64,000 nucleotides of DNA, from positions 91 to 64,090 of the forward strand of contig JAEZJZ010000030.1 of NCBI GenBank assembly GCA_023436245.1, read 5' to 3'. Both the position numbers and the translations under genes were made by a program. This stretch comes from Bacillota bacterium. GTDB taxonomy: Bacteria; Bacillota; UBA994; UBA5500. How positions within the stretch are numbered: the first letter of the stretch is position 1; every line of letters begins with the position of its first letter. The notes under the pieces were generated by a model. That model saw only the letters and a list, made by a program, of their open reading frames with translations. It did not search any database and had not been told where the DNA came from. Below, piece after piece: positions 17,429-61,666 of the stretch.

Positions 17429-18376
17429 ATGATTGGGGTTCTTTGCTCCGATGGGAAACGGCATGACTATGCCAGTGCGTTGCAAACCGGGCATGCCCCT
17501 GCAGGCGGCCGTACCCTGCCGCTGCTCTTCTTCTCGGCGACTGACCATGACAGCAAGAGCGGTCTAGTCGACGGCCTGGCGGCAGGCGCACCTGCCAAGG
17601 TTGTGCGGGCAGAGCTACCGCGCGTAATCCTCAATCTTTCGGTGCAGACCAACAGCTCTGGCCGACGAGCGCTGAAGGCCCTGCGGCTGAACCCAAATGT
17701 GCACTTGATCAACCCTGCCAATCGCTTCAACCAATGGACCGTACAGCAGATGCTAGCTTCCTCCCTCAACTTGGCAAACAACCAGCTGCCGATGCAGGTC
17801 TCGGACCAGCGGGAGCTGTATGCTCAGGTCATCCGCGCCCAAGGTCTACTCTTCACCCCAATTCAGAGTACCAGCCCCTGGCGGCTGCATTACCTCCCGG
17901 ACAGTCGGAAGGCGGCCCTGCTGGGAGCGCCAGGCCAAAGCGAGTGGCTTGACCAAATGCTGCTCAGGATCTCCTTTCACCAGCGTTGGCTGTCCAGCGA
18001 GGTCCCAGAGTTGCTCTGTACGGGCAAGCGACCCCTGGTTGCTCGTATCTACCTGCAGCGTGGCATGGGCGGTCTCTGGACCGTGCTCGGCAAGAGCCAG
18101 TTCAATGGGCAGCCCAGCGCGGGAGACTTGGCTGGCCCGGTTTCCACCCTGGCTCTGCAAGCCATTCATACGTTGTCCACATACCTGCCGACGTTGGGGC
18201 TTGCCTTCGTGGACTTCGTCTTCAGCATCCAAGGAGAGCCGTTCCTGCTGCATGCAGGGGGCTGGGACTACCGCCTGTTGCTTGCTTCCGAACTACATCA
18301 GCCACTGCTGGACAATCTGTTCAACTACGCCTATTGGTTGCTCAGCCATCAGGAGGTAGCGCCGGATGTGGATTAG
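17429..18376 (+). CDS. YheC/YheD-like protein, divergent and probably catalytically degenerate (no clear ExN)
   Basis: GAAGGGGGG RBS then ATG at 17429; VHLINPANRFNQWTVQQML region resembles the YheC/D pre-ATP-grasp domain; the stop overlaps the next start (ATGTGGATTAG). Confidence 0.45.
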   Translation: MIGVLCSDGKRHDYASALQTGHAPAGGRTLPLLFFSATDHDSKSGLVDGLAAGAPAKVVRAELPRVILNLSVQTNSSGRRALKALRLNPNVHLINPANRFNQWTVQQMLASSLNLANNQLPMQVSDQRELYAQVIRAQGLLFTPIQSTSPWRLHYLPDSRKAALLGAPGQSEWLDQMLLRISFHQRWLSSEVPELLCTGKRPLVARIYLQRGMGGLWTVLGKSQFNGQPSAGDLAGPVSTLALQAIHTLSTYLPTLGLAFVDFVFSIQGEPFLLHAGGWDYRLLLASELHQPLLDNLFNYAYWLLSHQEVAPDVD

Positions 18377-19730
18377 GCTGCACAGAATCTCGATGGAACA
18401 GACGGCGATCGGGCTCCCGAGCCCTTTATGTGCAGAGGTGGGGCCTTCCGCCACGCTCACGGTCGGCTGCCGGACGCAGGAAGTGACCATCCAGCAGACA
18501 GACAACCAACTGACCGGGAGCGGGGTGGCTTTGGAACAACCGCTGCAAGTTGATGTGTCCTCCGCTTTGCTGGACAACCTGTCCTTGCCCGATGGGCTAT
18601 GCTACCGACTGAGGTACGCTCGTAACCGCCTGCTGCTTGGCCCAATCATCGGACTATTGCTTGGCCGAGACACGCACCGCTACAGCCCGGCCTTCATGCA
18701 GAAGTTCAGTGATCGGCTGGGCGTCTATCAGCAGGTGGGTGGGCTAATTTGCGCCTTCTCCGCGGAAGCCATCGACTTCACCAGTCGAATGGCCGCCGGG
18801 CTGTATTACGATCCGGAGGAGGATAACTGGCGATATGGACAGTTCCCGCTGCCGGGAGTGATCTATCGTCGCAATTTCCATACAGGCCAGCAGGTGATCG
18901 ATAGACTGGTCGGCCTAACTGAGGGACGTCTGTTCAACTCCTATCGCTTTGACAAGGCAGAGCTCTACGCTTTTCTGGCCGGGGATCAGACTCTGCGGCA
19001 ATACCTGCCTCCCTGGGACGTAGCCAGCGACCCCGTCCAAGTGTCCGTCTTCCTGGACCGACACCAGAAAGCAGTGCTAAAGCCCATGGATTTGTCCCGA
19101 GGCCGCGGTATTTGCATCCTCGAGAAGGCAGACGACTGTGTGCTGGTGCACGATTACCGAGCGCATCTGCCAGTGAGGCGCGAGCTGGCAGGCGACCTAG
19201 GATTCCGGCAGTGGCTTGACCAGAACCCCGGTCTGTTCAATCGTTACCTAATGCAGGGCTATGTTCAGTTGGCCACCATTGCTGGGGCGCACTACGATGT
19301 GCGGTTGGTGATGCAGAAGAGGCTCTCGCTGAAGTGGGAGTGCTCCGGCATCGAATGCCGGGTGGGGCAAAGCAACAGCCTGCTGACCAACATCTCGCGC
19401 GGTGGCTACGCCCTGACCCTGCCGAAGGCTCTGGCGCTGTCCTTCCCGGGGCAGACCAACAACCCGCTGCTCGCACGTCAGTTGGTTGACGTGGCCTTGG
19501 GGATTTGCCGCAGGCTAGATCAACTGGGGGCGCACTTCGCCGAGCTGGGGCTGGACCTGGCAGTAGATGTTCACCGCCGGGTCTGGATTATCGAGGCCAA
19601 TGTGTTTCCTAGCTTCAAGGGCTTCAAGCGCACCAGCCAGCTCACATACCTTGCCATCCGCCATGCGCCTTTGCTTTATGCGCTCCATCTGAGCGGGCTG
19701 GACCAACCGGAAGGGGGTGAGTGGAGTTGA
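18366..19730 (+). CDS. YheC/YheD family ATP-grasp protein
   Basis: LLGPIIGLL N-terminus; ATP-grasp motifs KPMDLSRGRGICIL, MQGYVQ, YDVRLVMQK, IIEANVFPS. Confidence 0.7.
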   Translation: MWIRLHRISMEQTAIGLPSPLCAEVGPSATLTVGCRTQEVTIQQTDNQLTGSGVALEQPLQVDVSSALLDNLSLPDGLCYRLRYARNRLLLGPIIGLLLGRDTHRYSPAFMQKFSDRLGVYQQVGGLICAFSAEAIDFTSRMAAGLYYDPEEDNWRYGQFPLPGVIYRRNFHTGQQVIDRLVGLTEGRLFNSYRFDKAELYAFLAGDQTLRQYLPPWDVASDPVQVSVFLDRHQKAVLKPMDLSRGRGICILEKADDCVLVHDYRAHLPVRRELAGDLGFRQWLDQNPGLFNRYLMQGYVQLATIAGAHYDVRLVMQKRLSLKWECSGIECRVGQSNSLLTNISRGGYALTLPKALALSFPGQTNNPLLARQLVDVALGICRRLDQLGAHFAELGLDLAVDVHRRVWIIEANVFPSFKGFKRTSQLTYLAIRHAPLLYALHLSGLDQPEGGEWS

Positions 19731-21067
19731 CTGATCACTTGCGGCTGAAAGTGTTCAGCTCGCGCCGGCCACTGCTGGTCATCGAAACGAAGTTGGGCAA
19801 GCGACATGGCCTCGGCTCCGGCAGCATCTACAGAATCAGCTTCGGTACACACTCCACCAAGGCAAGACTCAGACTCGACAAGAGTCAGCCAGCCTCTGTA
19901 TTGGCCGTTTCTGAACACACGCAGGGCGAGCTTGTGCTCAGCGCTGCCCCCGCTTACCTACTGCGGCGGATAGGGAAGGAGATCCGGCTTGGTCCCCTGA
20001 TCGGAATATTATATTGCCGGCGTAGGGATCGCCTCACCAGCCGTCGTCTGCGCAGGCTGCAGAGCTACATACGGGAATACCCCAGGTTGCGCTGCAGCAT
20101 AGTTGTCTTCTCGTTGGACCAAATCAACCGCAGGAAGCTAACAGTGAACGGTTTTCTGTACAATCCGACCAGTGACAGCTGGGATGCCGGCACATACCCA
20201 TTCCCGGCCGCCATGTACCGGAGAATAGGGGTACCGCCATCCTGGCGGGATTTCTTCCACCAGACGATCGGGCGAGCCTGGTTCAATGACTATTACTGGG
20301 ACAAATTCGAACTGCATCAACGCCTCTCCACCCTGCCAGCCATCAGGGACTACCTGCCTGAGACTCGCCTGGCATTGACCGTTGAGGACGTGCAGTGCCT
20401 GTTGGCCAAACATGGCAGGGTATTTCTGAAACCAGTGGCTGGGATGCGCGGCAGGGGGGCAGTTCAACTCGCCCAGTCAGGCGCAGGGGTAAGCGTTCGT
20501 CGTGCGGATATGGCAGGCTCCATGCTGCTTGCCAGACAGGAGGAAGTCACCCGGTTCTTGCTTGAGCAGGTAATCGGCACTGGCTACTTGGTGCAGCAGT
20601 ATCTGCCGCTACTCAAGTGGCAGGATTGTGTGATAGATCTGCGCGTGCTGATGCAGAAAGAGGATGATTGCAGGTGGCACTGCCAGGGCATGGTCGTGCG
20701 GCAGGGCATGCAGGGCAGCATAGTCAGCAACATCTCTCGCCGGGGAGTAGCGTGGCAGGTCGATCTGTTCCTCCGGGATTGCCTAAGCCTCACTGAACAG
20801 GCAGCGCAGGAATGGCGCCAGCAAGCCGAACAGGTAGCCGGGCGCGTCTGCGCAGCGATCGACACCCTGGGCTGGAACAATGGAACCATTGGACTTGACC
20901 TTGGGCTGGATCAATCGGGGCGCTGGTGGTTAATTGAGGCAAACAACCGCGATCCCGACCCCACCATTGCCTTGGACGCCAACGATAGTCAGCTCTACAG
21001 GCGCCTGAAGCTGGCGCCGCTGCTCTACGCCAAAGGGTTGGCCGGATTTGGGCCTGACCACGAGTGA
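19721..21067 (+). CDS. YheC/YheD family ATP-grasp protein (paralog)
   Basis: GTG start overlapping the upstream stop by 10 nt; RLGPLIGIL, KPVAGMRGRGAVQL, VQQYLPL, IDLRVLMQK, LIEANNRDP. Confidence 0.7.
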   Translation: MELTDHLRLKVFSSRRPLLVIETKLGKRHGLGSGSIYRISFGTHSTKARLRLDKSQPASVLAVSEHTQGELVLSAAPAYLLRRIGKEIRLGPLIGILYCRRRDRLTSRRLRRLQSYIREYPRLRCSIVVFSLDQINRRKLTVNGFLYNPTSDSWDAGTYPFPAAMYRRIGVPPSWRDFFHQTIGRAWFNDYYWDKFELHQRLSTLPAIRDYLPETRLALTVEDVQCLLAKHGRVFLKPVAGMRGRGAVQLAQSGAGVSVRRADMAGSMLLARQEEVTRFLLEQVIGTGYLVQQYLPLLKWQDCVIDLRVLMQKEDDCRWHCQGMVVRQGMQGSIVSNISRRGVAWQVDLFLRDCLSLTEQAAQEWRQQAEQVAGRVCAAIDTLGWNNGTIGLDLGLDQSGRWWLIEANNRDPDPTIALDANDSQLYRRLKLAPLLYAKGLAGFGPDHE

Positions 21068-21890: not shown

Positions 21891-22100
21891 ACAACAGACA
21901 GCCGACTGGCGAGACTGTTCAGCTTGCGCTCTGCAGAGGCTCGGCATGCCGAGCCAATCCCGGCACCACAGGCATGCTGGGGGAGCTACGGTGAAGAGAA
22001 AGGCGACTTTCGAACACCGTCGCTTGCGTGCACCGAGCAGGCAGCACGGCAAAGTGACGCAGTGAGTCAACTTCAGCTACCCTAGTTCTGTACCTCAAGA

Positions 22101-22132
22101 GGCCGCTCGGACGTGATGCCGAACGGCCTCTT
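22101..22132. terminator. bidirectional hairpin between convergent genes
   Basis: GAGGCCGCTCGG-n-CCGAACGGCCTC stem. Confidence 0.35.
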
Positions 22133-22158
22133 CATGATCTACACGGCAGCTCACGCAG

Positions 22159-23586
22159 CTAGAAACTACGCAGCGCGTACAGGTTCGGGTTTTCGGTCTT
22201 GTCCCAGTTGCCGCTACTCCGCATCATCTGCAAGAAGGCCGCGCGGGCATCGCTCAGCACGCACCGCTGATCCACGCTTTGTACCTGACGATCTTGCATC
22301 AGCACCTGCCCGTCGACGATCACGTGACTGACATCCTGCCCGGAGGCATGATAGACCAGCCGCTGGATGGGCATCACGCCAAACGGCGCTAGATGCGGCT
22401 GCTCCACATCTACCAGAATGATATCCGCGCGCTTACCCACCTCCAGGGAACCGATCAGATGATCCAGCTTCAGAGCCCGGGCAGCGCGAATGGTGGCCAT
22501 CTCCAGGACGAGGCCGGCCGGCAGCAACCCGGTGTGGTGAAAGTGACCACGATGCAACACTTGGGCGACACGCAAATCCCGCCAGAGGTCAAAGCTGCGG
22601 TCGGGAGCAGTGCCGTCGGTGGCTATGACCACATTCACACCGGCCTCCAGCATCTCAAAGGCGGGGCAGCGCTGCCGCATCACCGAGTGGGTGGATGGCC
22701 CGTGGCAGACACTGATCCCCTTCTCGGCCATGATCTGCCATTCGTGCGGACTCATCCCGGTGCTGTGGCTGAGCGAGATGTCGCCACCCAACACCTCCGG
22801 ACTTGTCTGCTGCACGAACTCCATGTCTCCGCCGAAGGCATGAGCGTGAATCGGCACGCCGTAGCTATTGGCAATGCGCCGCATCTCCCGATTCTGCTTG
22901 ATGGCCAACTCCAACGGTATGCTGGGCGCGCGCCCGATGCGTGATGGCATGACGTAGCAGTAGGCGCGCGGATGCTTGCCCTGCCACTGACGTATGGCCT
23001 GTTCAGTCTGGGGAAACGCGTCTTCCGGGTTCACCGCATACTCCCGATAATCATCACCGCTCCAGACTCGTGCGAGCTTCGGCCACGGCGGGTTGGGCGA
23101 GCCAATGCCGCTGACCTGACGGATACCGATGGGCAATGCGCCGGCAAAATGAGCATCCAGAAGCTCCAGCCGATCCACACGCGGGGTGTTTCCAAGCATG
23201 GAAACGCCGGTGGTCACTCCAAACTTGAGGCGCTCCAGCGCAGCCAGGGCGCCCTCCGACCGCCAGAACTCCTCATCCGAGAACCGATGATAGATCCCCT
23301 CCGCCATCGGCTCCCACTCGTCACCCAGGTGCTCCCCCAACGTCTTGGTCAGACAGTGACCAGCATGACCGTGGCTGTCGATTAGCCCCGGCAGTACGGC
23401 GTGTCCGCTGGCGTCAATAGTGCGTGCCGCCGAGGCATCGGCAGGCAAGTCGCTCATTGGCCCGATGGCCGCGATGCTGTTTCCGCTGACTGCCACGAAA
23501 CCAGGCTGGTACACCCGGTGGTCTGGATCGACGGTAATCAATGTTCCGTTCTTGATCAACAAGTCAAACATCCGAAACCCTCCCAT
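22159..23586 (-). CDS. amidohydrolase family protein (ATZ/TRZ-like metal-dependent deaminase/hydrolase)
   Basis: LIDSHGHAGH HxH metal motif, about 470 aa, typical amidohydrolase domain organisation. Confidence 0.75.
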   Translation of the reverse strand: MGGFRMFDLLIKNGTLITVDPDHRVYQPGFVAVSGNSIAAIGPMSDLPADASAARTIDASGHAVLPGLIDSHGHAGHCLTKTLGEHLGDEWEPMAEGIYHRFSDEEFWRSEGALAALERLKFGVTTGVSMLGNTPRVDRLELLDAHFAGALPIGIRQVSGIGSPNPPWPKLARVWSGDDYREYAVNPEDAFPQTEQAIRQWQGKHPRAYCYVMPSRIGRAPSIPLELAIKQNREMRRIANSYGVPIHAHAFGGDMEFVQQTSPEVLGGDISLSHSTGMSPHEWQIMAEKGISVCHGPSTHSVMRQRCPAFEMLEAGVNVVIATDGTAPDRSFDLWRDLRVAQVLHRGHFHHTGLLPAGLVLEMATIRAARALKLDHLIGSLEVGKRADIILVDVEQPHLAPFGVMPIQRLVYHASGQDVSHVIVDGQVLMQDRQVQSVDQRCVLSDARAAFLQMMRSSGNWDKTENPNLYALRSF

Positions 23587-23812
23587 CGTTCTCTGCTTCC
23601 TTCATTCTTCCCCTTGCGGGTAAATGCCTGCCAGGCAAGCGCACTCCCTATTCCTTTCTACCTGGTCACAGTCCGATATACTTTTGATTCCATACTATTT
23701 TGTTGCCCAACATGCTACAATGCAAGCAGTTTTCTCATCAAATTTCGGCTAAGCCGCAACAATCATTCGCCATTTCGAGTATATAGTTAAAGCAGCTAAG
23801 GAGGTATAAGCA

Positions 23813-25651
23813 GTGCAAAAAAGGCGAGGCCCGAGGAACCCCGTCCTCTTCTACTATGGCTTGGTGATCCTGGTCACCATGTTACTCAACGCATTTGTCT
23901 TTCCGCTGTTCATGCAACAGCCGGTCACCCTGGTTGACTATGGGACCTTCCTGCAGCAGGTGGATAGCGGCAGCGTGTTCGCGGTGGAGATTCAGGACTA
24001 TCAAATCCTGTTCGCCACCAAGCAAGCTGATGGAACAGAGGCCCTCTTCAAGACGGGAGTCATGGACGACCCCGAGTTGGTCAAGCGACTGCAGACAGCG
24101 GCCGGTCAGGGTGAAGGCGGCAAGATCTCTTTTTCCCGGGTAATCCCGAGAGAACTCTCTCCCCTGCTCAACTTCATCCTCACCTGGATTCTGCCACTGG
24201 TCATATTTGCGCTGATGGGCCAAATGTTGATGGGCCAGGTGCAGAAGCGCATGGGCGGGCTGGGCAATGCCATGAGCTTCGGCAAAAGCAACGCCAAAAT
24301 CTACGTGCAGGCCCAGACCGGAAAGACATTCGCGGACGTGGCCGGGCAGGATGAAGCCAAGGAGGCATTGGAGGAGATCATCGACTTCCTGCACGACCCG
24401 CTGAAGTATTCCTCCATCGGCGCCACCTTGCCCAAGGGGGCGCTGTTGGTTGGCCCGCCCGGCACCGGTAAGACGCTGTTGGCGCGGGCGGTGGCCGGCG
24501 AAGCCAAGGTCCCCTTCTTCTCCATCTCCGGATCTGAGTTCGTGGAGATGTTCGTCGGCATGGGCGCGGCCAAGGTGCGCGATCTCTTCCGGCAAGCCAG
24601 TGAAAAGGCGCCTTGCATCGTGTTCATCGACGAGGTAGACACCATCGGCAAGCGACGCGACACCGGCGGCATCGGTGGGAACGATGAGCGCGAACAGACG
24701 CTGAACCAACTGCTGACTGAGATGGACGGATTCGACGGTAAGAAGGGCGTGGTCATTCTGGCTGCAACCAACCGTCCGGAGACCTTGGACAAAGCGCTGC
24801 TTCGTCCCGGCCGCTTCGACCGCCGCATCCCAGTGGAACTGCCGGATCTGCGTGGTCGCGAAGCTATTCTCAAGGTGCACGCTGAAAAAGTGAGTCTGGG
24901 CCGGGACGTGGACTTCAATGCCATCGCCCGAGCCACGGTGGGCGCTTCCGGCGCGGACCTGGCCAACATGATCAACGAAGCCGCCTTGCGGGCAGTGCGC
25001 TGCGGCCGCACAGAGGTCACCCAGAGCGACCTGGAGGAAAGCGTGGAAGTGGTGATCGCCGGCTACCAGAGAAAGCATGCGGTAGTGTCTGAGAAGGAGA
25101 AGGCCATCGTGGCCTATCACGAGATCGGGCACGCGCTGGTCGCCGCCAAGCAATCGGCGTCCGCACCAGTGCACAAGATCACGATCATCCCGCGCACATC
25201 CGGCGCACTGGGCTACACCGTGCAGGTCGAGGCCGACGAGCAGCGGCTGCTGAGCAAAGAAGAGGCGCTGAACCGCATTGCCACCCTGACCGGCGGCCGG
25301 GCGGCAGAGGAACTCGTCTTCAACACCATCACCTCCGGAGCCTCCAACGACATCGAACAGGCAACTCGGCTAGCCCGGGCGATGGTCACACGCTTCGGCA
25401 TGAGCGACGAGTTCGGCATGGTCGCTCTGGAAACGGTGAACAGCCAGTACCTGGGTGGAGATGCCTCGCTGATCTGCTCTCCCGAGACGTCGGCGCGCAT
25501 CGACCGCGAAGTGATGGCGATCATCCGGGAGGCCAAAGAAAGAGCGCAGACCATCCTCCAGGAGAACATGAGCAAGCTGCATGAACTGGCCAAGTTCCTG
25601 TTTGAGAAAGAGACGATCACCGGCGAGGAGTTCATGAAGCTTCTAGGATAA
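23813..25651 (+). CDS. ftsH: ATP-dependent zinc metalloprotease FtsH
   Basis: AAGGAGG RBS then GTG at 23813; two N-terminal TM helices, Walker [22 protein letters not shown] region, HEIGHAL zinc site. Confidence 0.9.
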
Positions 25652-25660
25652 GGTCAGCTA

Positions 25661-25705
25661 GGCCCTCGGCAGCCACAGGGGCTGGCCGAGGGCCTTTGCT
25701 ATTTT
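25661..25705 (+). terminator. intrinsic terminator of ftsH
   Basis: GGCCCTCGGC...GCCGAGGGCC stem followed by TTTGCTATTTTGG. Confidence 0.7.
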
Positions 25706-25826
25706 GGAGGACGAACGGAAACAAGTACGCGGGCAGGGTGCGCCAGAAAGCTGACGTTCAGTTGTCAGGTTACTTGCGGTATGCCAGTAATGTGAGGGCG
25801 ACTAGCACGGAAGGTCGGTGAAGGAA

Positions 25827-26585
25827 ATGCAGATCATTCGGGTTGATCAGAGCAACATTGATCGGGAACATATCTGTTGCGCGATCTCGGACAGCAAGGG
25901 GGATTCTGGCGTTCGGTGCAAAAAGGTGTGGATGCAGGAGCGCTTCGCGGAGGGGTTGACCTTTCAGAAGCTGGACGCACGGGGCAAGGTGTTCATTGAG
26001 TACATCCCGGCAGAGAATGCCTCGTGCCCAATCGTCGCAGATGGGTACATGTTCATCAACTGCTTTTGGGTGTCCGGGCAGTATAAGGGACAAGGATATG
26101 CCAACCAACTGCTTGACCTGTGTAGCAAGGACGCTCAGGCACGCGGGATGAAGGGCCTGGTGGCGCTCTCCGCAGCGAAGAAGATGCCGTTTCTGTCCGA
26201 TCCCAAGTACCTGAAGTATAAGGGCTTTCGGGTCGCGGACACGGCAGCCCCTTACTTTGAACTGCTCTATCTTCCGTTTGCGGAGGAGGCGGAGCAGCCG
26301 GTGTTCCGGGAATGTGCCAGAACCGGTCGTATAGAGGACCAAGGATTTGTGCTCTTCTACTCCAGCCAGTGTCCTCACACGGCGAAGTACGCTCCGCTGA
26401 TAGCGAGTATGGCCCGAGAACAAGGAGTCGAGTTCAAGCTGGTGCATCTGCGAACTACCAAAGACGCACAGCAAGCACCCACGCCGTTCACCACTTACGG
26501 GCTGTTTCACAATGGCGAGTTCGTCACCAATGAGATTCTCTCGGAGAAGAAATTCATCAGGTTACTGGACGAGAGAGGCCGATAG
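25827..26585 (+). CDS. GNAT acetyltransferase with YoaP-like C-terminal domain
   Basis: N-terminal GNAT fold (QGYANQLL acetyl-CoA motif) plus a C-terminal domain like B. subtilis YoaP; start could be the GTG at 25818. Confidence 0.6.
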   Translation: MQIIRVDQSNIDREHICCAISDSKGDSGVRCKKVWMQERFAEGLTFQKLDARGKVFIEYIPAENASCPIVADGYMFINCFWVSGQYKGQGYANQLLDLCSKDAQARGMKGLVALSAAKKMPFLSDPKYLKYKGFRVADTAAPYFELLYLPFAEEAEQPVFRECARTGRIEDQGFVLFYSSQCPHTAKYAPLIASMAREQGVEFKLVHLRTTKDAQQAPTPFTTYGLFHNGEFVTNEILSEKKFIRLLDERGR

Positions 26586-26606
26586 GTTGCCAACCCGGTA
26601 CGGCAA

Positions 26607-26648
26607 GACCCCCATGACCGAAAGCGGCTCATGGGGGTCTTCTTGTAG
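26607..26648 (+). terminator. intrinsic terminator
   Basis: GACCCCCAT...ATGGGGGTC stem then TTCTTGTAG. Confidence 0.6.
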
Positions 26649-26767
26649 AACTATGCCGTCGCTCATTTCATGTTCATCAGATGGTCAACCAGGGTGCCGA
26701 ACTCCGGGTCGGCGCTGCGGCGCGACCATAGCATAATCTGAACGCATCGCTCAAATGAGTCATTGTT

Positions 26768-26822
26768 ATGAACTCACGTGAGTATATTGAGCCAACTCAT
26801 CAATTATGAACATTTATAATTG
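26768..26822. promoter_or_regulatory. two palindromic candidate operator sites upstream of the dehydratase/activase operon
   Basis: ACTCACGTGAGT (perfect 12-bp palindrome, 26768-26779) and CATCAATTAT-n8-ATAATTGATG (10-bp inverted repeat, 26795-26822) in the AT-rich region 60-110 nt upstream of the ATG at 26880. Confidence 0.4.
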
Positions 26823-26879
26823 ATGCCATAAGCATAGTAATGCTATAGTGGGGTGATCTGATGCGAAGGAGGCCTTGCC

Positions 26880-28025
26880 ATGTCTGATGCCCTCAACCAA
26901 GCGCTAGAGCAATTCCACCGGCTGCGGGAGGCCGGTTTGTCTGCCATCATCAGTGGGAAGAAGAAGGGACTGAAGGTGGTTGGAACCTATTGCACCTATT
27001 GTCCGCAAGAGCTGATCCTGGCCGCCGGCGCAGTGCCAATCAGCCTCTGCGGCACGAAGGAGGAGCCGATTGCTGCAGCCGAAGAGACGCTGCCCCGCAA
27101 TCTCTGCCCGATGATCAAATCGTCCTATGGATTCGCCGTCACCGATACCTGCCCTTTCTTCTTCTTCTCGGACCTGATCATCGGGGAGACAACCTGTGAC
27201 GGCAAGAAGAAGATGTTCGAAATCATGCAGCAGAAGAAACCGGTACACGTGATGACCCTGCCCCACACGCAGACTGGAGCCGATGCGGTGCAGTTCTGGG
27301 TCGCTGAGATGCGCCGCCTGCGCACACGTCTGGAGCAGGAGCTGGCGGTTACTATCAGCGACGATCAGATCTGGGAGGCAATCGATCTGGTGAATGAGGA
27401 GCGGCGGGCAATCAAGGCTTTGCATGATCTCAACCAATCCAATCCGCCGCCAATCCCCGGGCTGAAGCTGCTGCAAGCGAGCTGGTTGCGAGCATTCGCA
27501 GCGGATAAGCGGGAAGTGATTGACCGCATCAGGCAGTTGATTGACGTGGCCAAGTCGAGCGTGTCTACCACCCCGTCCAGCAGACCGCGCGTGTTGCTGA
27601 CCGGCTGCCCGGTGGGCTTGGGCAGTGAAAAGGTGGTCACTCTGCTCGATCAGCTTGGCGCCGACATGGTGACGATGGAGAACTGCAGCGGCTACAAGAC
27701 GCTGGAACTGATGACGAGCCACGAGCACAGCGATCCGATTGAGGCGCTGGCTGCGAAGTACTTGCAGATTCCCTGCTCGTGCATGAGCCCGAATGACTAT
27801 CGACTTGACCTGCTTGAGAGAATGATGGCGGACTTTCGGGTAGATGCGGTGATCGACCTGACCTGGCAGGCCTGCCATACTTATAACGTGGAAGCTTACA
27901 GCGTGGGTCAATTGGTGCGCAAACATGGCCTCCCGTTCCTCCATCTGGAGAGTGACTACTCTCAGTCCGACATCGAGATTCTGCGGGTGCGCATCGAGGC
28001 GTTGCTGGAGATGGTGCACGCGTGA
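26880..28025 (+). CDS. 2-hydroxyacyl-CoA dehydratase family protein (HgdB/HadC-like, Cys-rich)
   Basis: 381 aa, multiple conserved Cys (CTYCP, CPMIK, CPVGLG, CSCM); AAGGAGG RBS; stop overlaps the start of the activase gene (GTGA). Confidence 0.65.
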   Translation: MSDALNQALEQFHRLREAGLSAIISGKKKGLKVVGTYCTYCPQELILAAGAVPISLCGTKEEPIAAAEETLPRNLCPMIKSSYGFAVTDTCPFFFFSDLIIGETTCDGKKKMFEIMQQKKPVHVMTLPHTQTGADAVQFWVAEMRRLRTRLEQELAVTISDDQIWEAIDLVNEERRAIKALHDLNQSNPPPIPGLKLLQASWLRAFAADKREVIDRIRQLIDVAKSSVSTTPSSRPRVLLTGCPVGLGSEKVVTLLDQLGADMVTMENCSGYKTLELMTSHEHSDPIEALAAKYLQIPCSCMSPNDYRLDLLERMMADFRVDAVIDLTWQACHTYNVEAYSVGQLVRKHGLPFLHLESDYSQSDIEILRVRIEALLEMVHA

Positions 28026-28789
28026 TCACGATTGGGCTCGACATCGGGTCGGTAGCAGCCAAGGGTTTGCTTCTGACGGAAGACCAGCAACTGACCCTAC
28101 TGCGACCGACCGGCTGGAGCCCTCGGGATGCTGGGGCAGGGCTCATTCAGGAACTGCTGGCCGCCGCGGGCCTAAACAGAGGAGACGTGTCCAGGATAGT
28201 GGCCACAGGTTATGGCCGGGTTGCGGTTACGGGCGTGGACAAGGCGGTGACTGAGATTACCTGTCACGCCCGCGGGCTGATTGCTCTCCTGCCTCAGGTG
28301 CGGACGGTGATCGACATCGGCGGTCAGGACAGCAAGGTGATCAAGCTGAATGAGCGCGGCAGGGTGATTGACTTTGCCATGAACGATAAGTGTGCCGCTG
28401 GCACTGGTCGCTTTCTGCAAGTGATGGCCGGAACGCTCGGTCTGGACGTGTCCGAACTAGCTGCCGCCGAACGGCCAGGGGAACTGGTGCCAATCACCAG
28501 CATGTGTACCGTCTTCGCCGAATCGGAGCTGATCAGCCATCTGGCTCAGAACAGGAGCAAAGGTGGCCTGGTGGCTGGCTTGCACCAGTCGGTGGCCAAA
28601 CGGGTAGCCAGCATGGCCAGCAAACTAGGGGTGGTTGAGCCGGTGGCGTTCACCGGCGGGGTCGCCCTAAACGATGGTGTCCGCAGGGCTTTGGCTGTGG
28701 AAATGCGGGTCGAGCTATTGACTCCGCCTGAGCGGCAGTTTACCGGCGCGCTGGGCGCAGCCATTCTGGCGCGTGAGTTAGGCGAATAG
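28022..28789 (+). CDS. acyl-CoA dehydratase activase (BadF/BadG/BcrA/BcrD-type ATPase, HgdC-like)
   Basis: MITIGLDIGSVAAKGLLL N-terminal ASKHA phosphate-1 motif, two Cys for a bridging [4Fe-4S], 255 aa. Confidence 0.75.
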   Translation: MITIGLDIGSVAAKGLLLTEDQQLTLLRPTGWSPRDAGAGLIQELLAAAGLNRGDVSRIVATGYGRVAVTGVDKAVTEITCHARGLIALLPQVRTVIDIGGQDSKVIKLNERGRVIDFAMNDKCAAGTGRFLQVMAGTLGLDVSELAAAERPGELVPITSMCTVFAESELISHLAQNRSKGGLVAGLHQSVAKRVASMASKLGVVEPVAFTGGVALNDGVRRALAVEMRVELLTPPERQFTGALGAAILARELGE

Positions 28790-28856
28790 CAAAGCGGGAC
28801 GTGGCCGTCACCCCTGTTGGGTGGACTTTCACGTCCCGCTTCTAATGTCCGGTTAT

Positions 28857-29675
28857 CTAGGAGAAGAGCAGTAAGCTGATCGCCATCACCGCCATGCCGC
28901 CAACCACGCCGTAGATAGCCAGATGTTCCTCAGCGTAAGCTCTCGCTGCCGGCAGCAGCTCATCCAGCGAGATGAAGACCATAATGCCGGCGACGAAACA
29001 GAACAATAGGCCAAGCACGACCTCGCTGAAAAACGGTTTGAGCAGCAGGTAACCGACAAGAGCTCCCGCCGGCTCGGACAAACCGGAAAGCAGGGCATAG
29101 CGAAAGGCTTTCCCCTTATCGCCGCTTGCGTAGTAGATTGGAACTGCAACCGCGATGCCTTCCGGCAGATTGTGGATAGCTACGGCAATAGCGATGGCAA
29201 TGCCCAACTTCGGATTCTGCAAGGCTGAAGCAAAGGTGGCCAAACCTTCGGGGAAGTTGTGAATGGCGATGGCCAGCGCGGCCATCAGCCCCATCCGCTG
29301 CAAACTCTCTGCACTCCTGGTCTCTGCGGGGCACCGCAAGTCCTCGGCAGAGCAGACGTGATGCGGGTTGTTGTCCTCTGGAATCAGCCTGTCGATTACC
29401 CCGATGGCCAGGATCCCAGCAAAGAAAGCGGCAACTGCCAGCCAGGCGCCAACTGCCTGACCCTTGGCCGCCATCAGGGATTCCTGCCCTTTGACCAGAA
29501 TGTCAGCAAAAGAGACATAGATCATCACTCCCGCCGAGAAGCCCAGCGCAAGCGACAGAAAGCGGTCGTTCAGTTTCTTGCTGACCAGCGCAATCCCACC
29601 GCCGATGCCAGCCGCCAGACCAGCGAACAGGGTGAGCAAGAAGGCTAGCCAAAAGTTGCCCTGAAACACAGGCAT
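28857..29675 (-). CDS. zupT: ZIP-family zinc/divalent metal transporter ZupT
   Basis: HNFPEG and HNLPEG motifs, 8 TM segments; start ambiguous (ATG 29675 or the GTG two codons later, GGAGGG RBS); co-directional immediately after rubrerythrin. Confidence 0.75.
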
Positions 29676-29789
29676 CCCTCCGTGCACCAAATCTGAGAGC
29701 AACGCAACCAGGCAAATTCCTGCAGGCAGAATCACAGGTCAGATGACAAGGCGACCCTCGATGATCTGAGGGCCGCCGCTTCTCCGTGT

Positions 29790-30338
29790 CTAGAACTGCA
29801 CGAACCGTTCCTTTGGCGCGCCGCAGATTGGGCACTTGTCTGGGGCCTCGCCCTCCCTAGTGTGCCCACAAACCGGGCAGACTTGAATGGCCACATCAGA
29901 GTAATCGCTGCCGGCGGCTACCATGGCTGCCGCTTTGCCGAACAGCTCGCTATGGTTCTTCTCGGCTTCCAGCGCATAGCGGATGGTCCGTTGGGCACCC
30001 TTTTCCTCCTGCGCGACAGCTACCACCTGGAATGACGGGTACATTTCGGCCACTTCATAGTCCTCGCCCGCCTTTGCCCAGGTGAGGTTCTCCTCCACCG
30101 AGCCAATGCCGAAACCGGCCATCGCCGGCACCAGAAAATCTCCGTGCACTGTGCGTAGTTCGCCAAAATGGGCATGGGCATGCACCTGCTCGGCATAGGC
30201 TACTGCTTCAAACAGCCTGGCCACTTGTGGAAATCCCTTGCGCTTGGCATCTGCCCCCCAGGCCAGATAACGCATGTGAGCCATGCTCTCCCCTCCGAAA
30301 GCGGAGCGCAGGTTGGCAGCAGTGGTGTTGTCCTTCAT
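29790..30338 (-). CDS. rbr: rubrerythrin
   Basis: Di-iron ExxH ferritin-like core plus C-terminal rubredoxin-like CPVCG...CPICG; GGGGGA RBS before ATG at 30338 (MKDNTTAANLRSAF). Confidence 0.8.
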   Translation of the reverse strand: MKDNTTAANLRSAFGGESMAHMRYLAWGADAKRKGFPQVARLFEAVAYAEQVHAHAHFGELRTVHGDFLVPAMAGFGIGSVEENLTWAKAGEDYEVAEMYPSFQVVAVAQEEKGAQRTIRYALEAEKNHSELFGKAAAMVAAGSDYSDVAIQVCPVCGHTREGEAPDKCPICGAPKERFVQF

Positions 30339-30462
30339 GTTCCTATTCCCCCTTGCACATTCTCTTGCACCGGGAATGGTGCAATGTCTACTACTTCTAT
30401 TCGCGTCTGCCTGTCGGCATACCTGCCTTCCCATATCCGCAGCGGTCATTAACTTATTTTTC

Positions 30463-30490
30463 AGTTAGTATATTAATAACTATTATTGAT
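30463..30490. promoter_or_regulatory. AT-rich imperfect palindrome (Fur/PerR-family-like box) in the rbr <-> prx divergent intergenic region
   Basis: AGTATATTAATAACTATTATTGATTTG; both flanking genes are classic peroxide-stress regulon members. Confidence 0.3.
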
Positions 30491-30567
30491 TTGTAGTTGC
30501 CATGTGATCTATGATGGGAATAGACAGAACTCGTTTCCAGTACTATGTAGCAAAGGGAGGAATGTAG

Positions 30568-31164
30568 ATGACAGTCATGGTTGGCAAGCCTGCTCCTTTG
30601 TTCACGGCAAAGGCGTTCCATCAGGGCAAATTTACCTCGGTTGAGCTAGAAAAACTGCGCGGGAAATGGGTGGTGCTCTGCTTCTACCCCGGCGACTTCA
30701 CCTTCGTCTGACCAACGGAGTTAACGTCGATAGCGGTTCGCTATCCGGAATTGCAGGCGCTTGACGTCGAAGTGTTGAGTTGCAGTGTCGACAGTGTTCA
30801 TTCACATAAGGTCTGGCAGGAGACGGAACTGTCCAAGATGGTTGAGGGCGGTGTGCCGTACCCGATGCTGGCTGACCAGGGCGGCAAGTTGGGCTCGCTC
30901 TATGGCGTGTACAACGAAGAGGCTGGAGTGAATGTGCGCGGTCGTTTCTTAATCGATCCCGACGGAGTGGTGCAGACCATGGAAGTGCTCACTCCTCCGG
31001 TTGGTCGCAACGATGCTGAACTGCTCCGCCAGGTAAAGGCGTATCAGCACCAGCGCGCCACCGGAGAAGTGATTCCGGCCGGCTGGCAACCGGGCAAACC
31101 GACGCTCAAGCCGTCAACGGCATTGACCGGTCGCGTCTGGGAAGTATGGAAGCCTGAGGCCTAG
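30568..31164 (+). CDS. AhpC/Prx1-type peroxiredoxin with in-frame TGA at the peroxidatic Cys position: candidate selenocysteine peroxiredoxin (PrxU-like); alternatively a TGC->TGA pseudogene
   Basis: AAAGGGAGG RBS then ATG at 30568; translation MTVMVGKPAPLFTAKAFHQGKF...FYPGDFTFV[TGA]PTELTSIAV... aligns with AhpC FYPADFSFVCPTEL; same frame continues 151 codons to the stop at 31164; the resolving Cys (GEVCPA) is replaced by GEVIPA. Confidence 0.6.
30729..30745 (+). promoter_or_regulatory. SECIS-like hairpin 18 nt downstream of the in-frame UGA
   Basis: GAUAGCG-GUU-CGCUAUC (7-bp stem, apical loop containing GU) centred about 27 nt after UGA, within the window expected for bacterial SECIS elements. 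Confidence 0.45.
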
Positions 31165-31167
31165 GAT

Positions 31168-31255
31168 CCTGCATATCTAGGTTCTGATCTCAAATAGCGC
31201 CCCTGGAGTGTTGTGACCTAAACACACCAGGGGCGCAACTTGTGCACCGACTTTC
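31168..31255. terminator. bidirectional hairpin between convergent prx and AOR-like genes
   Basis: GCGCCCCTGG...CCAGGGGCGC 10-bp stem. Confidence 0.35.
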
Positions 31256-31274: not shown

Positions 31275-32840
31275 TCAACTCCTGGCGGCGCTTCCTTGCG
31301 CGAAGTAGCGATAAAGCACCTTCACGAACTCTGGCACACTGGCATCAACAGACTGCTCAAAAAGAGAGAGCTCATATCCCTTAACTGCCTGTAGCGCATT
31401 CAGTCCGGACTGGATGATATCCCCCGAAGCAAACGTCTTCCCCACTTTGGCCGAAGCCAAACGAGCAAGCAAATCTTGCCCCTCGGGGTGCTCCAAGATG
31501 GCGAAGGACGTGAACAGACAAATGCCCAGGTTCCCAGTACCCAGCATATACGCGTGTAGGTAGTCTAAATCGGATAGTGAGGCGAAGCCCTCAGCCTTAT
31601 GAGGAATCGCAACCTGAAAGTGTTTTGCCTCCTGCACTGAGGGCCGAGTGACTAGCCCAGCCAGGTCGGTCTGGTCCGCATATAGCTTGGCAATCGTACC
31701 GGTGCCGCTGCCTACAATGCGGCCGGTGGACGTCAAGTGCGTCACCTCGCTCAGCAGCTCCCAGATCGCCCCCTCGCTGGCTGGTCGCCTTTCCGCCCGT
31801 AGGAACATGGCAGCGCTAGCCACGAACTCCAGGCTGTCAATCCCAAGCTCGAAGCAGGCCTGATTGAGGGCGCGCGCAAAGCTAGGACTGTTGATGGCAA
31901 AGTGCTTCTCGCAACCAGCTAGGACTTCGCTTTCGGCTGGTGAGCTGTATGCCTCCTCTGCGCTGGCTGCGTGCCGATTCAGGCAGCCGATCACGCATCC
32001 GGGTCCGCAATTGCGGTTCAGTCCCGGCTGAACCCCTACTGGCCGCTTGCTGCCGTCTGCTGTCAGGCTGACGGCGAAATCGTGTCCATGCCGCAGCATC
32101 TTGATTAGTGTGATCGAACCATAGGCTGGCAGCGCTCCACCGCAGACCGGGTGCTGGACGATTATCCGCCCCAGTTGCTTGTTGAGCTGCGCAATCAGGG
32201 CGGAATCAGCAGTAGGAGCAGAGAAGTGCGCCCTCCCGCTGACAACAACCGCCTTCAGCCCCATACTTCCAAAGACAGACCCGAGGCGATTACGACCGAC
32301 ATGGTAAACAGGGCTGCCGCTCGCGGGATAGGTGCTGAACGCACTGGATAGGGCCAGTAAGCGCTCACCAGCCGGGCCAATGCCAACAACTGCCGTTTCG
32401 GCATCCCACTTCGCACGGAGAGCGGACACCGTCTGCCCGACAGGTGCCCCACGCAGTTCCGGGATGGCAACCAACTGCACTCCGGTTGCAGATGCCTGAA
32501 CCGTGAGGGTACGCTGCGATTGTCGGTCGCCCACGACAACCAGCGCGGCGATGTCCAGCGAAGCCAGCTTCTGCGGAAGCGGGCCCGCGATGTTGGCCAG
32601 ATGCAACTGATTGCTGGCGGGTGCAATGCCCGCCAAGCTCAGCCGACAGGTGCTCGGCACAGGGGTACCGCTCAACAACCCGGGCGCAAGCACCAGACAC
32701 CCGCGCTGGCCGCCCTGGCCGCGGTACTCGTAGCATAGGCGTGCAGAAAGGCTTCTACCGCTCTGATCAAGGCTCTCGAACTGGTGCTCCTGAGATATGA
32801 CCGTCCCCTTGTCCAAGTCAACCAAGACTACTCTGGGCAT
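31275..32840 (-). CDS. aldehyde ferredoxin oxidoreductase (AOR) family protein, shorter than canonical tungsten AORs
   Basis: N-terminal AOR domain (MPRVVLVDLDKGTV, IGPAGE, GLKAVVVSG), Cys cluster NCGPGCVIGC, C-terminal GICLFTSF; these motifs match Pyrococcus AOR; last gene of the ABC transporter operon. Confidence 0.55.
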   Translation of the reverse strand: MPRVVLVDLDKGTVISQEHQFESLDQSGRSLSARLCYEYRGQGGQRGCLVLAPGLLSGTPVPSTCRLSLAGIAPASNQLHLANIAGPLPQKLASLDIAALVVVGDRQSQRTLTVQASATGVQLVAIPELRGAPVGQTVSALRAKWDAETAVVGIGPAGERLLALSSAFSTYPASGSPVYHVGRNRLGSVFGSMGLKAVVVSGRAHFSAPTADSALIAQLNKQLGRIIVQHPVCGGALPAYGSITLIKMLRHGHDFAVSLTADGSKRPVGVQPGLNRNCGPGCVIGCLNRHAASAEEAYSSPAESEVLAGCEKHFAINSPSFARALNQACFELGIDSLEFVASAAMFLRAERRPASEGAIWELLSEVTHLTSTGRIVGSGTGTIAKLYADQTDLAGLVTRPSVQEAKHFQVAIPHKAEGFASLSDLDYLHAYMLGTGNLGICLFTSFAILEHPEGQDLLARLASAKVGKTFASGDIIQSGLNALQAVKGYELSLFEQSVDASVPEFVKVLYRYFAQGSAARS

Positions 32841-41569: not shown

Positions 41570-42271
41570 CTAGACTGTACGGTCTACTCGACGATAGATC
41601 ACGTTCCAAAGCACGAACACAATCGCAGTCTCGGCCAGGGATCTGGCTGGCCAGACCCGATTGACCAGCACTTCGTAGAGCGATCCTCCGACCAAGAGCA
41701 GCGCCAGCGTCCAGTAGAGGGTGGTGACTGCCGACTTACCCATCACCACCTGGTAGCGCTCATCCATGCTGCGGCTGTGATCCCCGGTCTCAAAACCCTC
41801 CACCCACTCGCTGCTCGGCTTGCGCAACCAGTGCGCCAGAATGAAGCCGCCATAGAGCAACCACAGGATGCCCGTGAACGCCAGTTGATCGAAGCTGAAG
41901 GCCTGACCGCGTAGCAGCTTGAGCGTGATCGGCACGGCGGTACCGACGATGAAGACCAGCCCGCCCACGGTGATCAGCCAGCGGTTGATGCTCCAACTCA
42001 GGCGATAGCTGTCACCTGAGCGCTTGCGCAGCAGCCTCTCGTAGACGGCGGGAAAGACAAAGAGCATCAGGATGTACATCAGGCCGAGAGGCAGCATCTG
42101 CTCCCGCCAAAAGCCAGGCTCCTGTACGATGGCGCGCAGAGCCTCCCAGGTGCTCTCCCCGGCGCGCATCGCAGGCAGGGCGTTCATGGAAACGATGAAC
42201 ACAAACGTCAACATCATAGTCAGGATCATGATTGCCGGCCGCGGCTTCGCCTTGGCTTGTTTACTCATGTT
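41570..42271 (-). CDS. membrane protein (DUF2178-like), partner of the XRE regulator
   Basis: Start MSKQAKAKPRP overlaps the end of the XRE gene; 4-5 TM helices. Confidence 0.45.
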   Translation of the reverse strand, partial: NMSKQAKAKPRPAIMILTMMLTFVFIVSMNALPAMRAGESTWEALRAIVQEPGFWREQMLPLGLMYILMLFVFPAVYERLLRKRSGDSYRLSWSINRWLITVGGLVFIVGTAVPITLKLLRGQAFSFDQLAFTGILWLLYGGFILAHWLRKPSSEWVEGFETGDHSRSMDERYQVVMGKSAVTTLYWTLALLLVGGSLYEVLVNRVWPARSLAETAIVFVLWNVIYRRVDRTV

Positions 42272-42482
42272 TGCTCTCCTCCTCCAGCTCCTCTTGACAG
42301 AGAAAGACTCGCTCAATCGGCTGCGCAAAAATCTGTGCAATCTTGTAGGCCAGCATGATGGACGGATTATACCGGCCACTCTCGATGGAGATGATCGTCT
42401 GCCGCGAAACGCCCACCCGTTGAGCCAAATCCTCCTGCGTCAGCCCGTGCTGACCGCGTAAATCTCGCACCATATTTTTCAC
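42261..42482 (-). CDS. XRE-family helix-turn-helix transcriptional regulator (YozG-like)
   Basis: LRGQHGLTQEDLAQRVGVSRQTIISIESGRYNPS, 73 aa. Confidence 0.8.
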   Translation of the reverse strand: MKNMVRDLRGQHGLTQEDLAQRVGVSRQTIISIESGRYNPSIMLAYKIAQIFAQPIERVFLCQEELEEESKHE

Positions 42483-44500: not shown

Positions 44501-44664
44501 ACTCTACTCCCTCCCGTCCGCTACTGACCTGATTGTATCTCTGCGCAGCGGTCCACTCGAGGCAGAAAATGTGTGTAACTCATCTTCTCCCAACACGAAA
44601 AATGGCCCCCGGGTTCTCGGGAAGCCACAACAATATCCAAGACGTCGCGGATGGGAAACCTCTT

Positions 44665-45315
44665 CTAAGAAAGCGGCGGGAACAACTCCAGCAAGCCTCC
44701 TGGGTTCTCGACCAGATGATGCGGGTCGCACTCTTCCAGCGACTCGCGTGGGAAGCTGGACCAGAGCACCCCAATTGCGGTCACGCCAGCCGCCTTCGCC
44801 GCAAGCAGGTCGTAAGGGCTGTCACCAACCATAGCGGCTGCCTGGTTGTCCACGCCGAACAGCTCCAGCGCCTTCTGCACCGGAGCAGGATGGGGCTTAT
44901 GCTTATCCGTGTCCTCGGCGCAAACCAACAGTTCAAAGTACCGTTCCAGATTGAACAACTGCAGGCCCCGCAGCACAATCGGTCTGATCTTGGAGGTTAC
45001 TATACCCAGACGGTAACCGCGCTGCTCCAGCTCTGCCAAGAGAGCGTCAATGCCAGGGAAGCCCTGGGTGAGTTGATCATGCATGTCCGAGTTGAACTGC
45101 CGATAGGTGGCAATCAGCTGTTCCTCCTGCCCGGGAGCGAACAACGCGAACTGGTCGTGCAGCGGCTGGCCGAAGTAACGATAAATCTCTTCGTCGGTCA
45201 CCTGCAGCCCATGCGTGGCAAAGGTGTGGCGGAAGGATTGGATGATCAACTCGTTGGTGTTGATCAGGGTGCCGTCGAGATCGAAAAGTAGAGTGGTGAT
45301 CTTGCTATTGCTCAT
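44665..45315 (-). CDS. HAD-IA family hydrolase (PpaX/phosphoglycolate phosphatase-like)
   Basis: LLFDLDGTL motif I, GIVTSK motif II, K...GDSPYD motif III. Confidence 0.75.
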   Translation of the reverse strand: MSNSKITTLLFDLDGTLINTNELIIQSFRHTFATHGLQVTDEEIYRYFGQPLHDQFALFAPGQEEQLIATYRQFNSDMHDQLTQGFPGIDALLAELEQRGYRLGIVTSKIRPIVLRGLQLFNLERYFELLVCAEDTDKHKPHPAPVQKALELFGVDNQAAAMVGDSPYDLLAAKAAGVTAIGVLWSSFPRESLEECDPHHLVENPGGLLELFPPLS

Positions 45316-48393: not shown

Positions 48394-48485
48394 GGTCATT
48401 CCTCCCATCCCAAATCGACTCATGTACTTGATTATATACCATGTTCATCCAGCGTTGTTCACAAAGTTGTGCTCACTGTTGGCAG

Positions 48486-60452: not shown

Positions 60453-60593
60453 CTGTATTCCCTCCGTATTCTTACCATCAGACGTTACGGCCGCATTATG
60501 TCCCAGCGCTCAAGTCACAGTAGCATCCCATTCCTCCTCGCGTTCTGGAATTCGATCGACAATAGTTCTCCTCAGCACGGGCTCATATATACA

Positions 60594-60646
60594 GACACCT
60601 ATAAGACGATTCTGCAACGCCTTTTCTTGCAGCTTATGGATATGTC
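60594..60646. repeat. 53-bp direct repeat, copy 1 (ACACCTATAAGACGATTCTGCAACGCCTTTTCTTGC-n7-GGATATGTCT)
   Basis: Second copy at 63091-63143; the weaker similarity continues for about 40 nt. Confidence 0.8.
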
Positions 60647-60722
60647 TTTTGAAACCGAAGCTTTAATCTCAAGAAGGGGCGCCTCTCACAAAGAGAGACG
60701 CCCACTTAGCTCTCCCAGTTCC

Positions 60723-61251: not shown

Positions 61252-61261
61252 GTTATCCGGC

Positions 61262-61601
61262 AGAGATCGAGGCTGCCGTCACGTATGCCAAGGCCAGCCC
61301 TGCGGAAATGGACTGTTCCCTTGCCTTGAGCCAGGCACCGAAGCATTCCTTCAGCGGCATGTGCATGTACTGCGGACACTGCGCGCCTTGCACCGCCAGC
61401 ATCGACATCGCGCTGGTCAACAAGTATCTGGATTTGGCGCAGGCGCAGCCAGAACTGCCCGAGACGGTGCGCGAGCACTATCGGGTGCTGCCGGCCAAAG
61501 CCGCCGACTGTGTGGCCTGCGGTATCTGCGAAACGAACTGCCCCTTCGGCGTGCGCATCGTGGAACGCATGCAGGAAGCTAAAAAAGTATTCGGCCAGTG
61601 A
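61262..61601 (+). pseudogene. orphan 3' fragment of an AKR-ferredoxin gene (right copy of the duplication)
   Basis: ...EIEAAVTYAKASPAEMDCSLALSQAPKHSFSGMCMYCGHCAPC... is identical in register to the AKR C-terminus, with no 5' part. Confidence 0.7.
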
Positions 61602-61666
61602 AGCCAATCCTACCCCCGGGACGTCTACCTGATGTAGGGGGTGAGGAAATGAGACAGGGTAGCAGG
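61264..61666. repeat. right copy of the ~405-bp direct duplication
   Basis: See 58021-58425. Confidence 0.85.

Follow-up and report, generated by a model that had tools for sequence, protein, structure and literature searches.

Does an in-frame TGA at the catalytic codon of a bacterial peroxiredoxin (Prx) gene terminate the protein, or is it read as selenocysteine (Sec)? The question is raised by a 64,000-nucleotide (nt) stretch of a Bacillota bacterium genome (GenBank assembly GCA_023436245.1, contig JAEZJZ010000030.1), which we refer to as the window. Its parent is scaffold_267 (68,278 bp; ENA ERZ28596075, BioSample SAMN17062689). A preliminary description, made from the letters alone, had proposed that positions 30568-31164 encode a peroxiredoxin with Sec at its active site, inserted with the help of a hairpin resembling a selenocysteine insertion sequence (SECIS). 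This core proposal held up: the sequence bears the mark of selection on both sides of the TGA, the hairpin covaries among relatives and the protein matches the NCBIfam model NF040737. On this comparative evidence, 30568-31164 is very probably an intact prxU gene, encoding a PrxU-family peroxiredoxin with a peroxidatic selenocysteine. The parts of the gene on which the argument depends are the following.

30553-30560, + strand: Shine-Dalgarno sequence AAGGGAGG, read off the sequence, 7 nt from the ATG
30568-31164, + strand: predicted prxU coding sequence of AhpC/Prx1 type and PrxU family, 198 codons including Sec48, with the stop codon TAG at 31162-31164
30679-30681, + strand: Cys38 codon TGC, ten residues before Sec, the only Cys conserved throughout the family (VVLCFYPGDFTFVU)
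30709-30711, + strand: predicted Sec48 codon, an in-frame TGA at the peroxidatic position of the motif PxxxTxxU (P41, T45, U48)
30729-30745, + strand: SECIS-type hairpin GAUAGCG-GUU-CGCUAUC, with a 7-bp stem (30729-30735/30739-30745) and the loop GUU (30736-30738)
31072-31074, + strand: Ile169 codon at the resolving-Cys position of typical 2-Cys peroxiredoxins, within GEVIPAGW rather than GEVCPAGW

Family identity and conservation of the TGA codon

The reading frame starts at the ATG at 30568, directly 3′ of an in-frame TAG, and translates as MTVMVGKPAP...WVVLCFYPGDFTFV*PTELTSIAVRYPEL..., with the active-site motif FTFV-U-PTEL. Beyond the TGA it stays open for 150 codons before reaching the TAG at 31162-31164. 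Translated through the TGA, the protein matched the Pfam families AhpC-TSA (1.5e-36), Redoxin and 1-cysPrx_C. The closest solved structures were typical 2-Cys peroxiredoxins of the Prx1/AhpC group (4fh8, human Prx2 1qmv and Amphibacillus AhpC 1we0), with E-values of 1e-43 to 1e-50 over residues 4-184. Most of what had been described beforehand was recovered here, including the ribosome-binding site at its distance from the ATG, the TGA in place of the peroxidatic Cys codon in a frame that continues to a normal stop, the AhpC/Prx1-type sequence and the exchange of the resolving Cys for Ile169. The expectation that automated annotation would miss or split the gene was also borne out. The mechanical list of open reading frames (ORFs) for the window gives only 30751-31164, and public gene calls on the identical contig break prxU into pieces of 47 and 137 amino acids.

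Family models assigned the protein to PrxU. It scored 333.5 bits against the curated NF040737 "peroxi_PrxU" equivalog, for which the cut-off is 270 (E-value of 6.9e-100), with residues 2-197 aligned to positions 35-232 of the 233-position profile. Every other peroxiredoxin model remained below its cut-off, including that for AhpC (TIGR03137, 192.5 against 272), and the Prx6-like models were far below.

We then compared the peroxidatic codon across relatives. Searching a set with a single genome for each GTDB species returned 589 relatives, and the best 80 loci (64-92% identity) were kept. Codon 48 was TGA in all 80 of these closest loci; 79 were recognised by a motif search and the eightieth (L012) carries FTYV*PTEL. 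The loci are spread over more than ten phyla, among them Bacillota, Chloroflexota, Actinomycetota, Thermodesulfobacteriota/Deltaproteobacteria and Acidobacteriota, as well as Nitrospiraceae, Zixibacteria, Calditrichota, Ignavibacteria, Armatimonadota and others. Asking whether orthologs carry TGA or TGC, as the preliminary description had suggested, therefore favoured the Sec reading of the UGA. Among the best 120 matches in a protein database, 107 had the active-site motif, and the peroxidatic site was Trp in 88 of these, which corresponds to a TGA read through by the gene caller, and Cys in 18. True TGC or TGT forms do occur in more distant family members, for example in Aggregatilinea lenta. 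Two public entries (P0015 and P0083) are fragments of split Sec-Prx genes; others translate the TGA as Trp.

That gene callers split the gene, and that TGA is one base away from TGC and TGT, could also be explained if the TGA were a nonsense mutation or an assembly error, leaving a pseudogene or a mis-sequenced Cys-containing peroxiredoxin. Yet such an accident would have to coincide with the same codon in all 80 closest species-level genomes and with a full-length match to the PrxU equivalog model. It is also at odds with the pattern of substitutions. The nearest relative (L001) aligns to the window gene without gaps at 92% amino-acid and 79% nucleotide identity. The proportions of nonsynonymous and synonymous sites that differ (pN/pS) were 0.09/0.77 over the 47 codons 5′ of the TGA and 0.038/0.72 over the 150 codons 3′ of it (omega ~0.02). 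This comparison indicates strong purifying selection on the gene to either side of the TGA, with synonymous sites saturated, and the values downstream of the TGA are incompatible with a pseudogene. The same base was found in a second assembly (Logan assembly of SRR13347280, 99.99% identical to window positions 21942-31233), although the Logan contig probably stems from the same reads or sample and so checks the assembly rather than the sequencing. We give a mutation or error hardly any credence and regard it as effectively refuted.

The many database entries with Trp at codon 48 might instead suggest that TGA has been reassigned throughout the genome, as in genetic codes 4 or 25, making it an ordinary sense codon for Trp or Gly. 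Within the window, TGA is the commonest ordinary stop, ending 25 of the 55 ORFs of at least 150 amino acids, many of which match Pfam models from end to end. The genetic code is thus the standard one, which the phyla of the relatives also use. Moreover, the enzyme would be inactive with Trp or Gly as its peroxidatic residue. Given how stop codons are used in the window, genome-wide reassignment is refuted; we attach practically no probability to it and retain the codon-specific reading as Sec.

The hairpin downstream of the TGA codon

If the TGA is read as Sec, a SECIS element is expected shortly downstream. The stem of the hairpin at 30729-30745 begins after a gap of 17 nt from the UGA, and its apical loop after one of 24 nt (30712-30735). 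Its position had been given correctly in the preliminary description, which had counted 18 nt as the spacing. The published constraints on bacterial SECIS (bSECIS) elements are a loop of 3-9 nt, a stem of 4-16 bp, a spacing of 16-37 nt and a minimum free energy (MFE) of at most -7.5 kcal/mol (PMC13188914). According to the legend of Figure 2 in that paper, one of the first two loop nucleotides is a G, mostly with a G or U after it. The window hairpin falls within these limits for loop (3 nt), stem (seven Watson-Crick pairs), G-U and spacing (24 nt), so that the loop containing GU in bacterial SECIS geometry was correctly recognised from the sequence. With four flanking nt on each side its energy was -8.4 kcal/mol (z -1.5), and as a 17-mer alone it reached -7.3 kcal/mol.

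How often would such a structure arise by chance? Of the 2167 TGA triplets in the window, 23 (1.1%) are followed by a hairpin that has SECIS geometry and seven or more Watson-Crick pairs. The 71-nt context of the hairpin folded no better than shuffled sequences (z +0.28), and contexts of 59-71 nt behaved alike. Because the fold energy of the single sequence is unremarkable, the significance of the hairpin rests on comparative data. A longer alternative, the MFE fold of 30712-30770 (-18.5 kcal/mol), was ruled out by the same comparison, as only 48.8% of its positions were paired in relatives, which is the level of shuffled sequences.

The relatives fell into two hairpin groups, a class 2 of 15 sequences that resemble the window and a class 1 of 70 sequences. 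Class 2 is found mostly in Clostridia-type Bacillota and encodes S-(H/S)-I-A-V-(G/R)-Y. In the alignment of its 15 sequences (A1), the seven pairs of the stem were 94.3% paired; with the 3′ arm slid out of register, the value was 25-41%. Three of the seven pairs had changed on both sides, a covariation score reached by none of 500 shuffles. Pair 21-37 occurred as CG (n = 9), GC (n = 3) and UA (n = 2), and pair 22-36 as AU (n = 13), GC (n = 1) and GU (n = 1). The loop columns 28-29 (G and U) were invariant in all 15. Third codon positions in class 2 are also suited to pairing in the stem. Every sequence has A as the last base of the Ile/Val codon (AUA or GUA), and the Tyr codon is UAU in 14 of the 15, the single UAC being paired with GUA; in class 1 the Tyr codon is UAC in 34 sequences and UAU in 28.

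The class 1 hairpin, NNGNCGGC-RGUY-GCCGNCNN, lies 7 nt nearer to the UGA, with 17 nt between the UGA and its loop, and is the form found in most phyla. In the alignment of 70 sequences (A2), it was 85.5% paired, and five pairs showed double-sided changes, largely between third codon positions. As predicted structures, both classes fit the published bSECIS constraints, with the energy criterion borderline for the window. Taken together with the position of the TGA, these comparisons suggest that the window hairpin is a SECIS element that directs Sec insertion.

A separate observation concerns the family as a whole. One orthologous selenoprotein family appears to use two SECIS registers 7 nt apart, each with its own covariation. 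If true, this would be a case of SECIS turnover within a conserved coding sequence.

Decoding of the UGA and recycling of the enzyme

Several observations weigh against reading the UGA as Sec. The stand-alone energy of the hairpin is marginal with respect to the threshold of -7.5 kcal/mol, and its value depends on where the limits of the element are set. Folding of the single sequence favours a different structure from the hairpin, and no SECIS family was matched in Rfam scans, run at gathering thresholds in the window and permissively near the gene. The hairpin is also not exclusive to TGA forms. In four Cys-codon homologs compared at the DNA level, three, five, seven and seven of the eight class 1 pairs were kept, so that a class-1-like hairpin persists in two of the four (L088 and L089). 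These two hairpins may be fossil SECIS elements left after conversion of Sec to Cys; alternatively, the AAVAA codons may dictate part of the structure. As described above, the second assembly bears on assembly and not on sequencing.

The remaining points concern the decoding machinery. Neither selA, selB and selD nor a gene for tRNA-Sec was detected in the 64-kb window or in the rest of the 68,278-bp scaffold, using Pfam and NCBIfam annotation of essentially all window ORFs and both scaffold ends together with ARAGORN. A negative result over 68 kb is in itself not informative. The lack of tRNA-Sec in the window is uninformative, because this gene is not expected beside prxU; a tRNA scan of the 80 related loci likewise found no tRNA-Sec near the Sec-Prx gene. 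A scan of the window for other frames joined by a TGA returned only prxU as convincing, and therefore no second selenoprotein gene; the remaining candidates run over genes in different frames or join neighbouring genes. That this organism decodes Sec is thus something that we infer from a TGA and a hairpin kept under selection. In the same window, the class-V aminotransferase at 47287-48423 was considered as the selenocysteine lyase SclA and rejected (score of 89 against a cut-off of 525).

The lack of Sec machinery on the 68-kb scaffold would fit a UGA that is decoded other than as Sec. The trait might have been lost or the cell starved of selenium, with Cys or Trp inserted by near-cognate readthrough or by a Cys-charged tRNA(Sec), giving a Cys-containing or an inactive peroxiredoxin. 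True Cys-form members of the family exist and are presumably functional, which would be compatible with this scenario. However, a TGA in 80 of 80 relatives across phyla together with a covarying hairpin makes sense only with dedicated recoding, and one would expect TGC to become fixed, or the gene to disappear, in a lineage that lacks Sec machinery. The strong purifying selection that persists 3′ of the TGA also speaks against it. We therefore consider decoding as another residue quite improbable, and continue with selenocysteine as the preferred reading.

On this basis, the 7-bp hairpin with its GUU loop 24 nt downstream of UGA48 would act as a SECIS element, recruit SelB-GTP-Sec-tRNA(Sec) and so yield a 198-residue enzyme. 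The Sec48 selenolate, located in a site formed by P41-x3-T45-x2-U48 and Arg124, would reduce hydrogen peroxide or organic hydroperoxides and become a selenenic acid, as general knowledge of the family suggests. With Ile169 in place of a C-terminal resolving Cys, the enzyme would probably be recycled by a 1-Cys-type route, either through direct attack by a thiol reductant from outside, which the NCBI family name gives as thioredoxin, or perhaps by Cys38.

Absence of the resolving Cys is the rule among Sec-form relatives. Nearly all of them have GEV[M/T/I/A/L]P or GEATP, and GEVCPAGW is kept only in L053, L067, L073 and L075 of the 80 related loci. Cys38, by contrast with the Phe found at its position in solved Prx1/AhpC structures, is present ten residues before the peroxidatic site in 87 of the 88 TGA-form homologs against 11 of the 18 Cys-form homologs (Fisher p ~1e-5, a value that is not corrected for phylogeny). 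This correlation between Sec and Cys38 hints at a possible functional coupling, in which Cys38 might serve as a resolving or stabilising thiol.

About half of PrxU proteins, in both Sec and Cys forms (for example P0001, P0006, P0008 and P0042), have an N-terminal extension of 32-37 residues. A single Cys is conserved in it, within the motif (D/V)GC(V)xPA(K/R)GPI; the extension is in some cases accompanied by a signal-peptide-like leader, and it is included in the NF040737 profile.

Since the short forms lack both the C-terminal resolving Cys and this Cys-bearing extension, Cys38 on strand beta3 suggests itself as an intramolecular partner. Short-form PrxU could then recycle its oxidised Sec through a selenenylsulfide with Cys38, an idea that we put forward as speculative and rather unlikely. 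To our knowledge, a resolving position like that of Cys38 has been described for no peroxiredoxin subfamily.

Genomic neighbourhood and known systems

We also considered the genes and signals that surround prxU, of which the following were annotated.

29790-30338, - strand: rubrerythrin gene, divergent to prxU, with the start of the 182-residue form at 30338 and the longest ORF extending to 30449
30486-30515, + strand: candidate sigma-70-like promoter TTGATT-18-TATGAT, from a consensus scan, weak
31197-31236, strand not assigned: GC-rich hairpin between the prxU stop codon and the AFOR_N-domain gene, -30.6 kcal/mol (z -6.15; none of 200 shuffles as stable)

The proposal that prxU sits in an oxidative-stress cluster with rubrerythrin was supported by Pfam. 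The divergent gene matched the Rubrerythrin and RUBY_RBDX families, remained below the cut-offs of the NCBIfam rubrerythrin and nigerythrin models, and is called as 182 amino acids on the identical contig. It is followed by a ZupT gene. On the other side, an AFOR_N-domain gene (31275-32840, - strand) is convergent with prxU. Within 3.5 kb of the Sec-Prx gene, the 80 loci and the window contained a flavodiiron protein in 14 cases, rubrerythrin in 13 including the window, a Fur/PerR-family regulator in 12, desulfoferrodoxin in ten, a ferritin-like protein in nine, and a flavin reductase-rubredoxin and an NADH-oxidase-like flavoprotein in eight each. Such neighbours are the classical oxidative-stress set of anaerobes. 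With its divergent rubrerythrin gene, and given the flavodiiron proteins, superoxide reductase, Fur/PerR regulators and ferritin near its relatives, prxU would belong to the oxidative-stress defence of an anaerobe.

Signals for expression are less distinct. The GC-rich hairpin at 31197-31236 is probably a shared, bidirectional transcription terminator for the two convergent genes; the + strand has no U-tract. An AT-rich imperfect palindrome, TATTAATAACTATTATTGAT (~30471-30490), overlaps the -35 element of the promoter candidate and could be a Fur/PerR-type operator. A PerR box of the B. subtilis type was absent from the window promoter region and was not enriched 5′ of prxU genes.

Other observations were made in the same data. 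In L049, L067, L070 and L073, a pair of Sec-Prx paralogs, each with a TGA, lie in tandem or a few kb apart, and one of the two often has a divergent C-terminus. Just upstream of the cluster of ZupT, rubrerythrin and prxU, window positions 26880-28789 encode an anaerobic reductase of the double-cubane-cluster type (NF040772, 490 bits) together with its partner, a BcrAD/BadFG-type ATPase. Compared with canonical tungsten AORs, the 521-residue protein encoded at 31275-32840 is both shorter and more diverged; it matched AFOR_N (aldehyde:ferredoxin oxidoreductase, N-terminal) alone in Pfam and nothing in NCBIfam. At 18366-21067, a 330-residue ORF without a family match precedes a tandem pair of YheC/D-like ATP-grasp genes. 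ORFs without a Pfam match were found at 8803-10536, 41570-42379, 44533-45291 and 59520-62287.

The worth of this result lies mainly in annotation. A gene that would encode a functional selenoprotein is split into 47 and 137 amino acids, or read with Trp, here and in many public entries. Calling it correctly gives the organism back a peroxide-detoxifying enzyme in its oxidative-stress repertoire, and prxU identifies it as an organism that probably uses selenium. For biology the result asks nothing new, since family, Sec codon and SECIS-type hairpin had each been established before.

Among known systems, typical 2-Cys peroxiredoxins of the Prx1/AhpC group share the active site DFTFV-C/U-PTE and the conserved Arg with the window protein. 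They differ in that the window protein is predicted to have Sec at the peroxidatic site, and has Ile in place of the resolving Cys, Cys in place of Phe at -10 and Gly in place of Leu, Ala or Met at -6. Like the 1-Cys peroxiredoxins (Prx6), it has no resolving Cys and matches the Pfam family 1-cysPrx_C, but its sequence falls in the Prx1/AhpC clade. The hairpin resembles bacterial SECIS elements (E. coli fdhF type, bSECISearch consensus) as a stem-loop within the coding sequence, directly 3′ of the UGA, with a small loop that begins with G-U. It differs as a minimal 17-nt hairpin, without the bulged U or the conserved lower stem.

The closest known system is PrxU itself, the "Prx (TxxU)" of the Zhang and Gladyshev surveys. 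The Sec-containing peroxiredoxin of Eubacterium acidaminophilum was purified in 2001 (Sohling et al., Biol Chem 382:979, as cited in PMC13188914, ref 83), and "Peroxiredoxin (Prx), TxxU" appears among the experimentally verified prokaryotic selenoproteins named in PMC13188914. A 2006 survey counted 12 Sec-Prx genes (PMC1794560, Table 1), with hosts that include Syntrophobacter, Syntrophus, Anaeromyxobacter, Geobacter metallireducens, Alkaliphilus, Syntrophomonas wolfei and Symbiobacterium, and Sec-Prx was named among the selenoprotein families of highest abundance in the Global Ocean Sampling (GOS) data (PMC2398784). The preliminary description had considered the gene a member of a rare class with a single known precedent. 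This has to be corrected, as the gene is an ortholog of that very precedent, and Sec-Prx counts as one of the commoner selenoprotein families of bacteria. With PrxU of E. acidaminophilum, the window gene shares the UGA in PxxxTxxU, a Prx1/AhpC-like fold of ~200 residues, a Clostridia-like, anaerobic setting and, just 3′ of the UGA, a SECIS hairpin. Nothing essential differs in this comparison, which was made through the NF040737 profile. Within the family, the window protein represents the short form, lacking the N-terminal extension of ~34 residues with its conserved Cys that is found in about half of the members. The gene is thus of an already known kind, an ordinary member of the well-described and widespread PrxU family.

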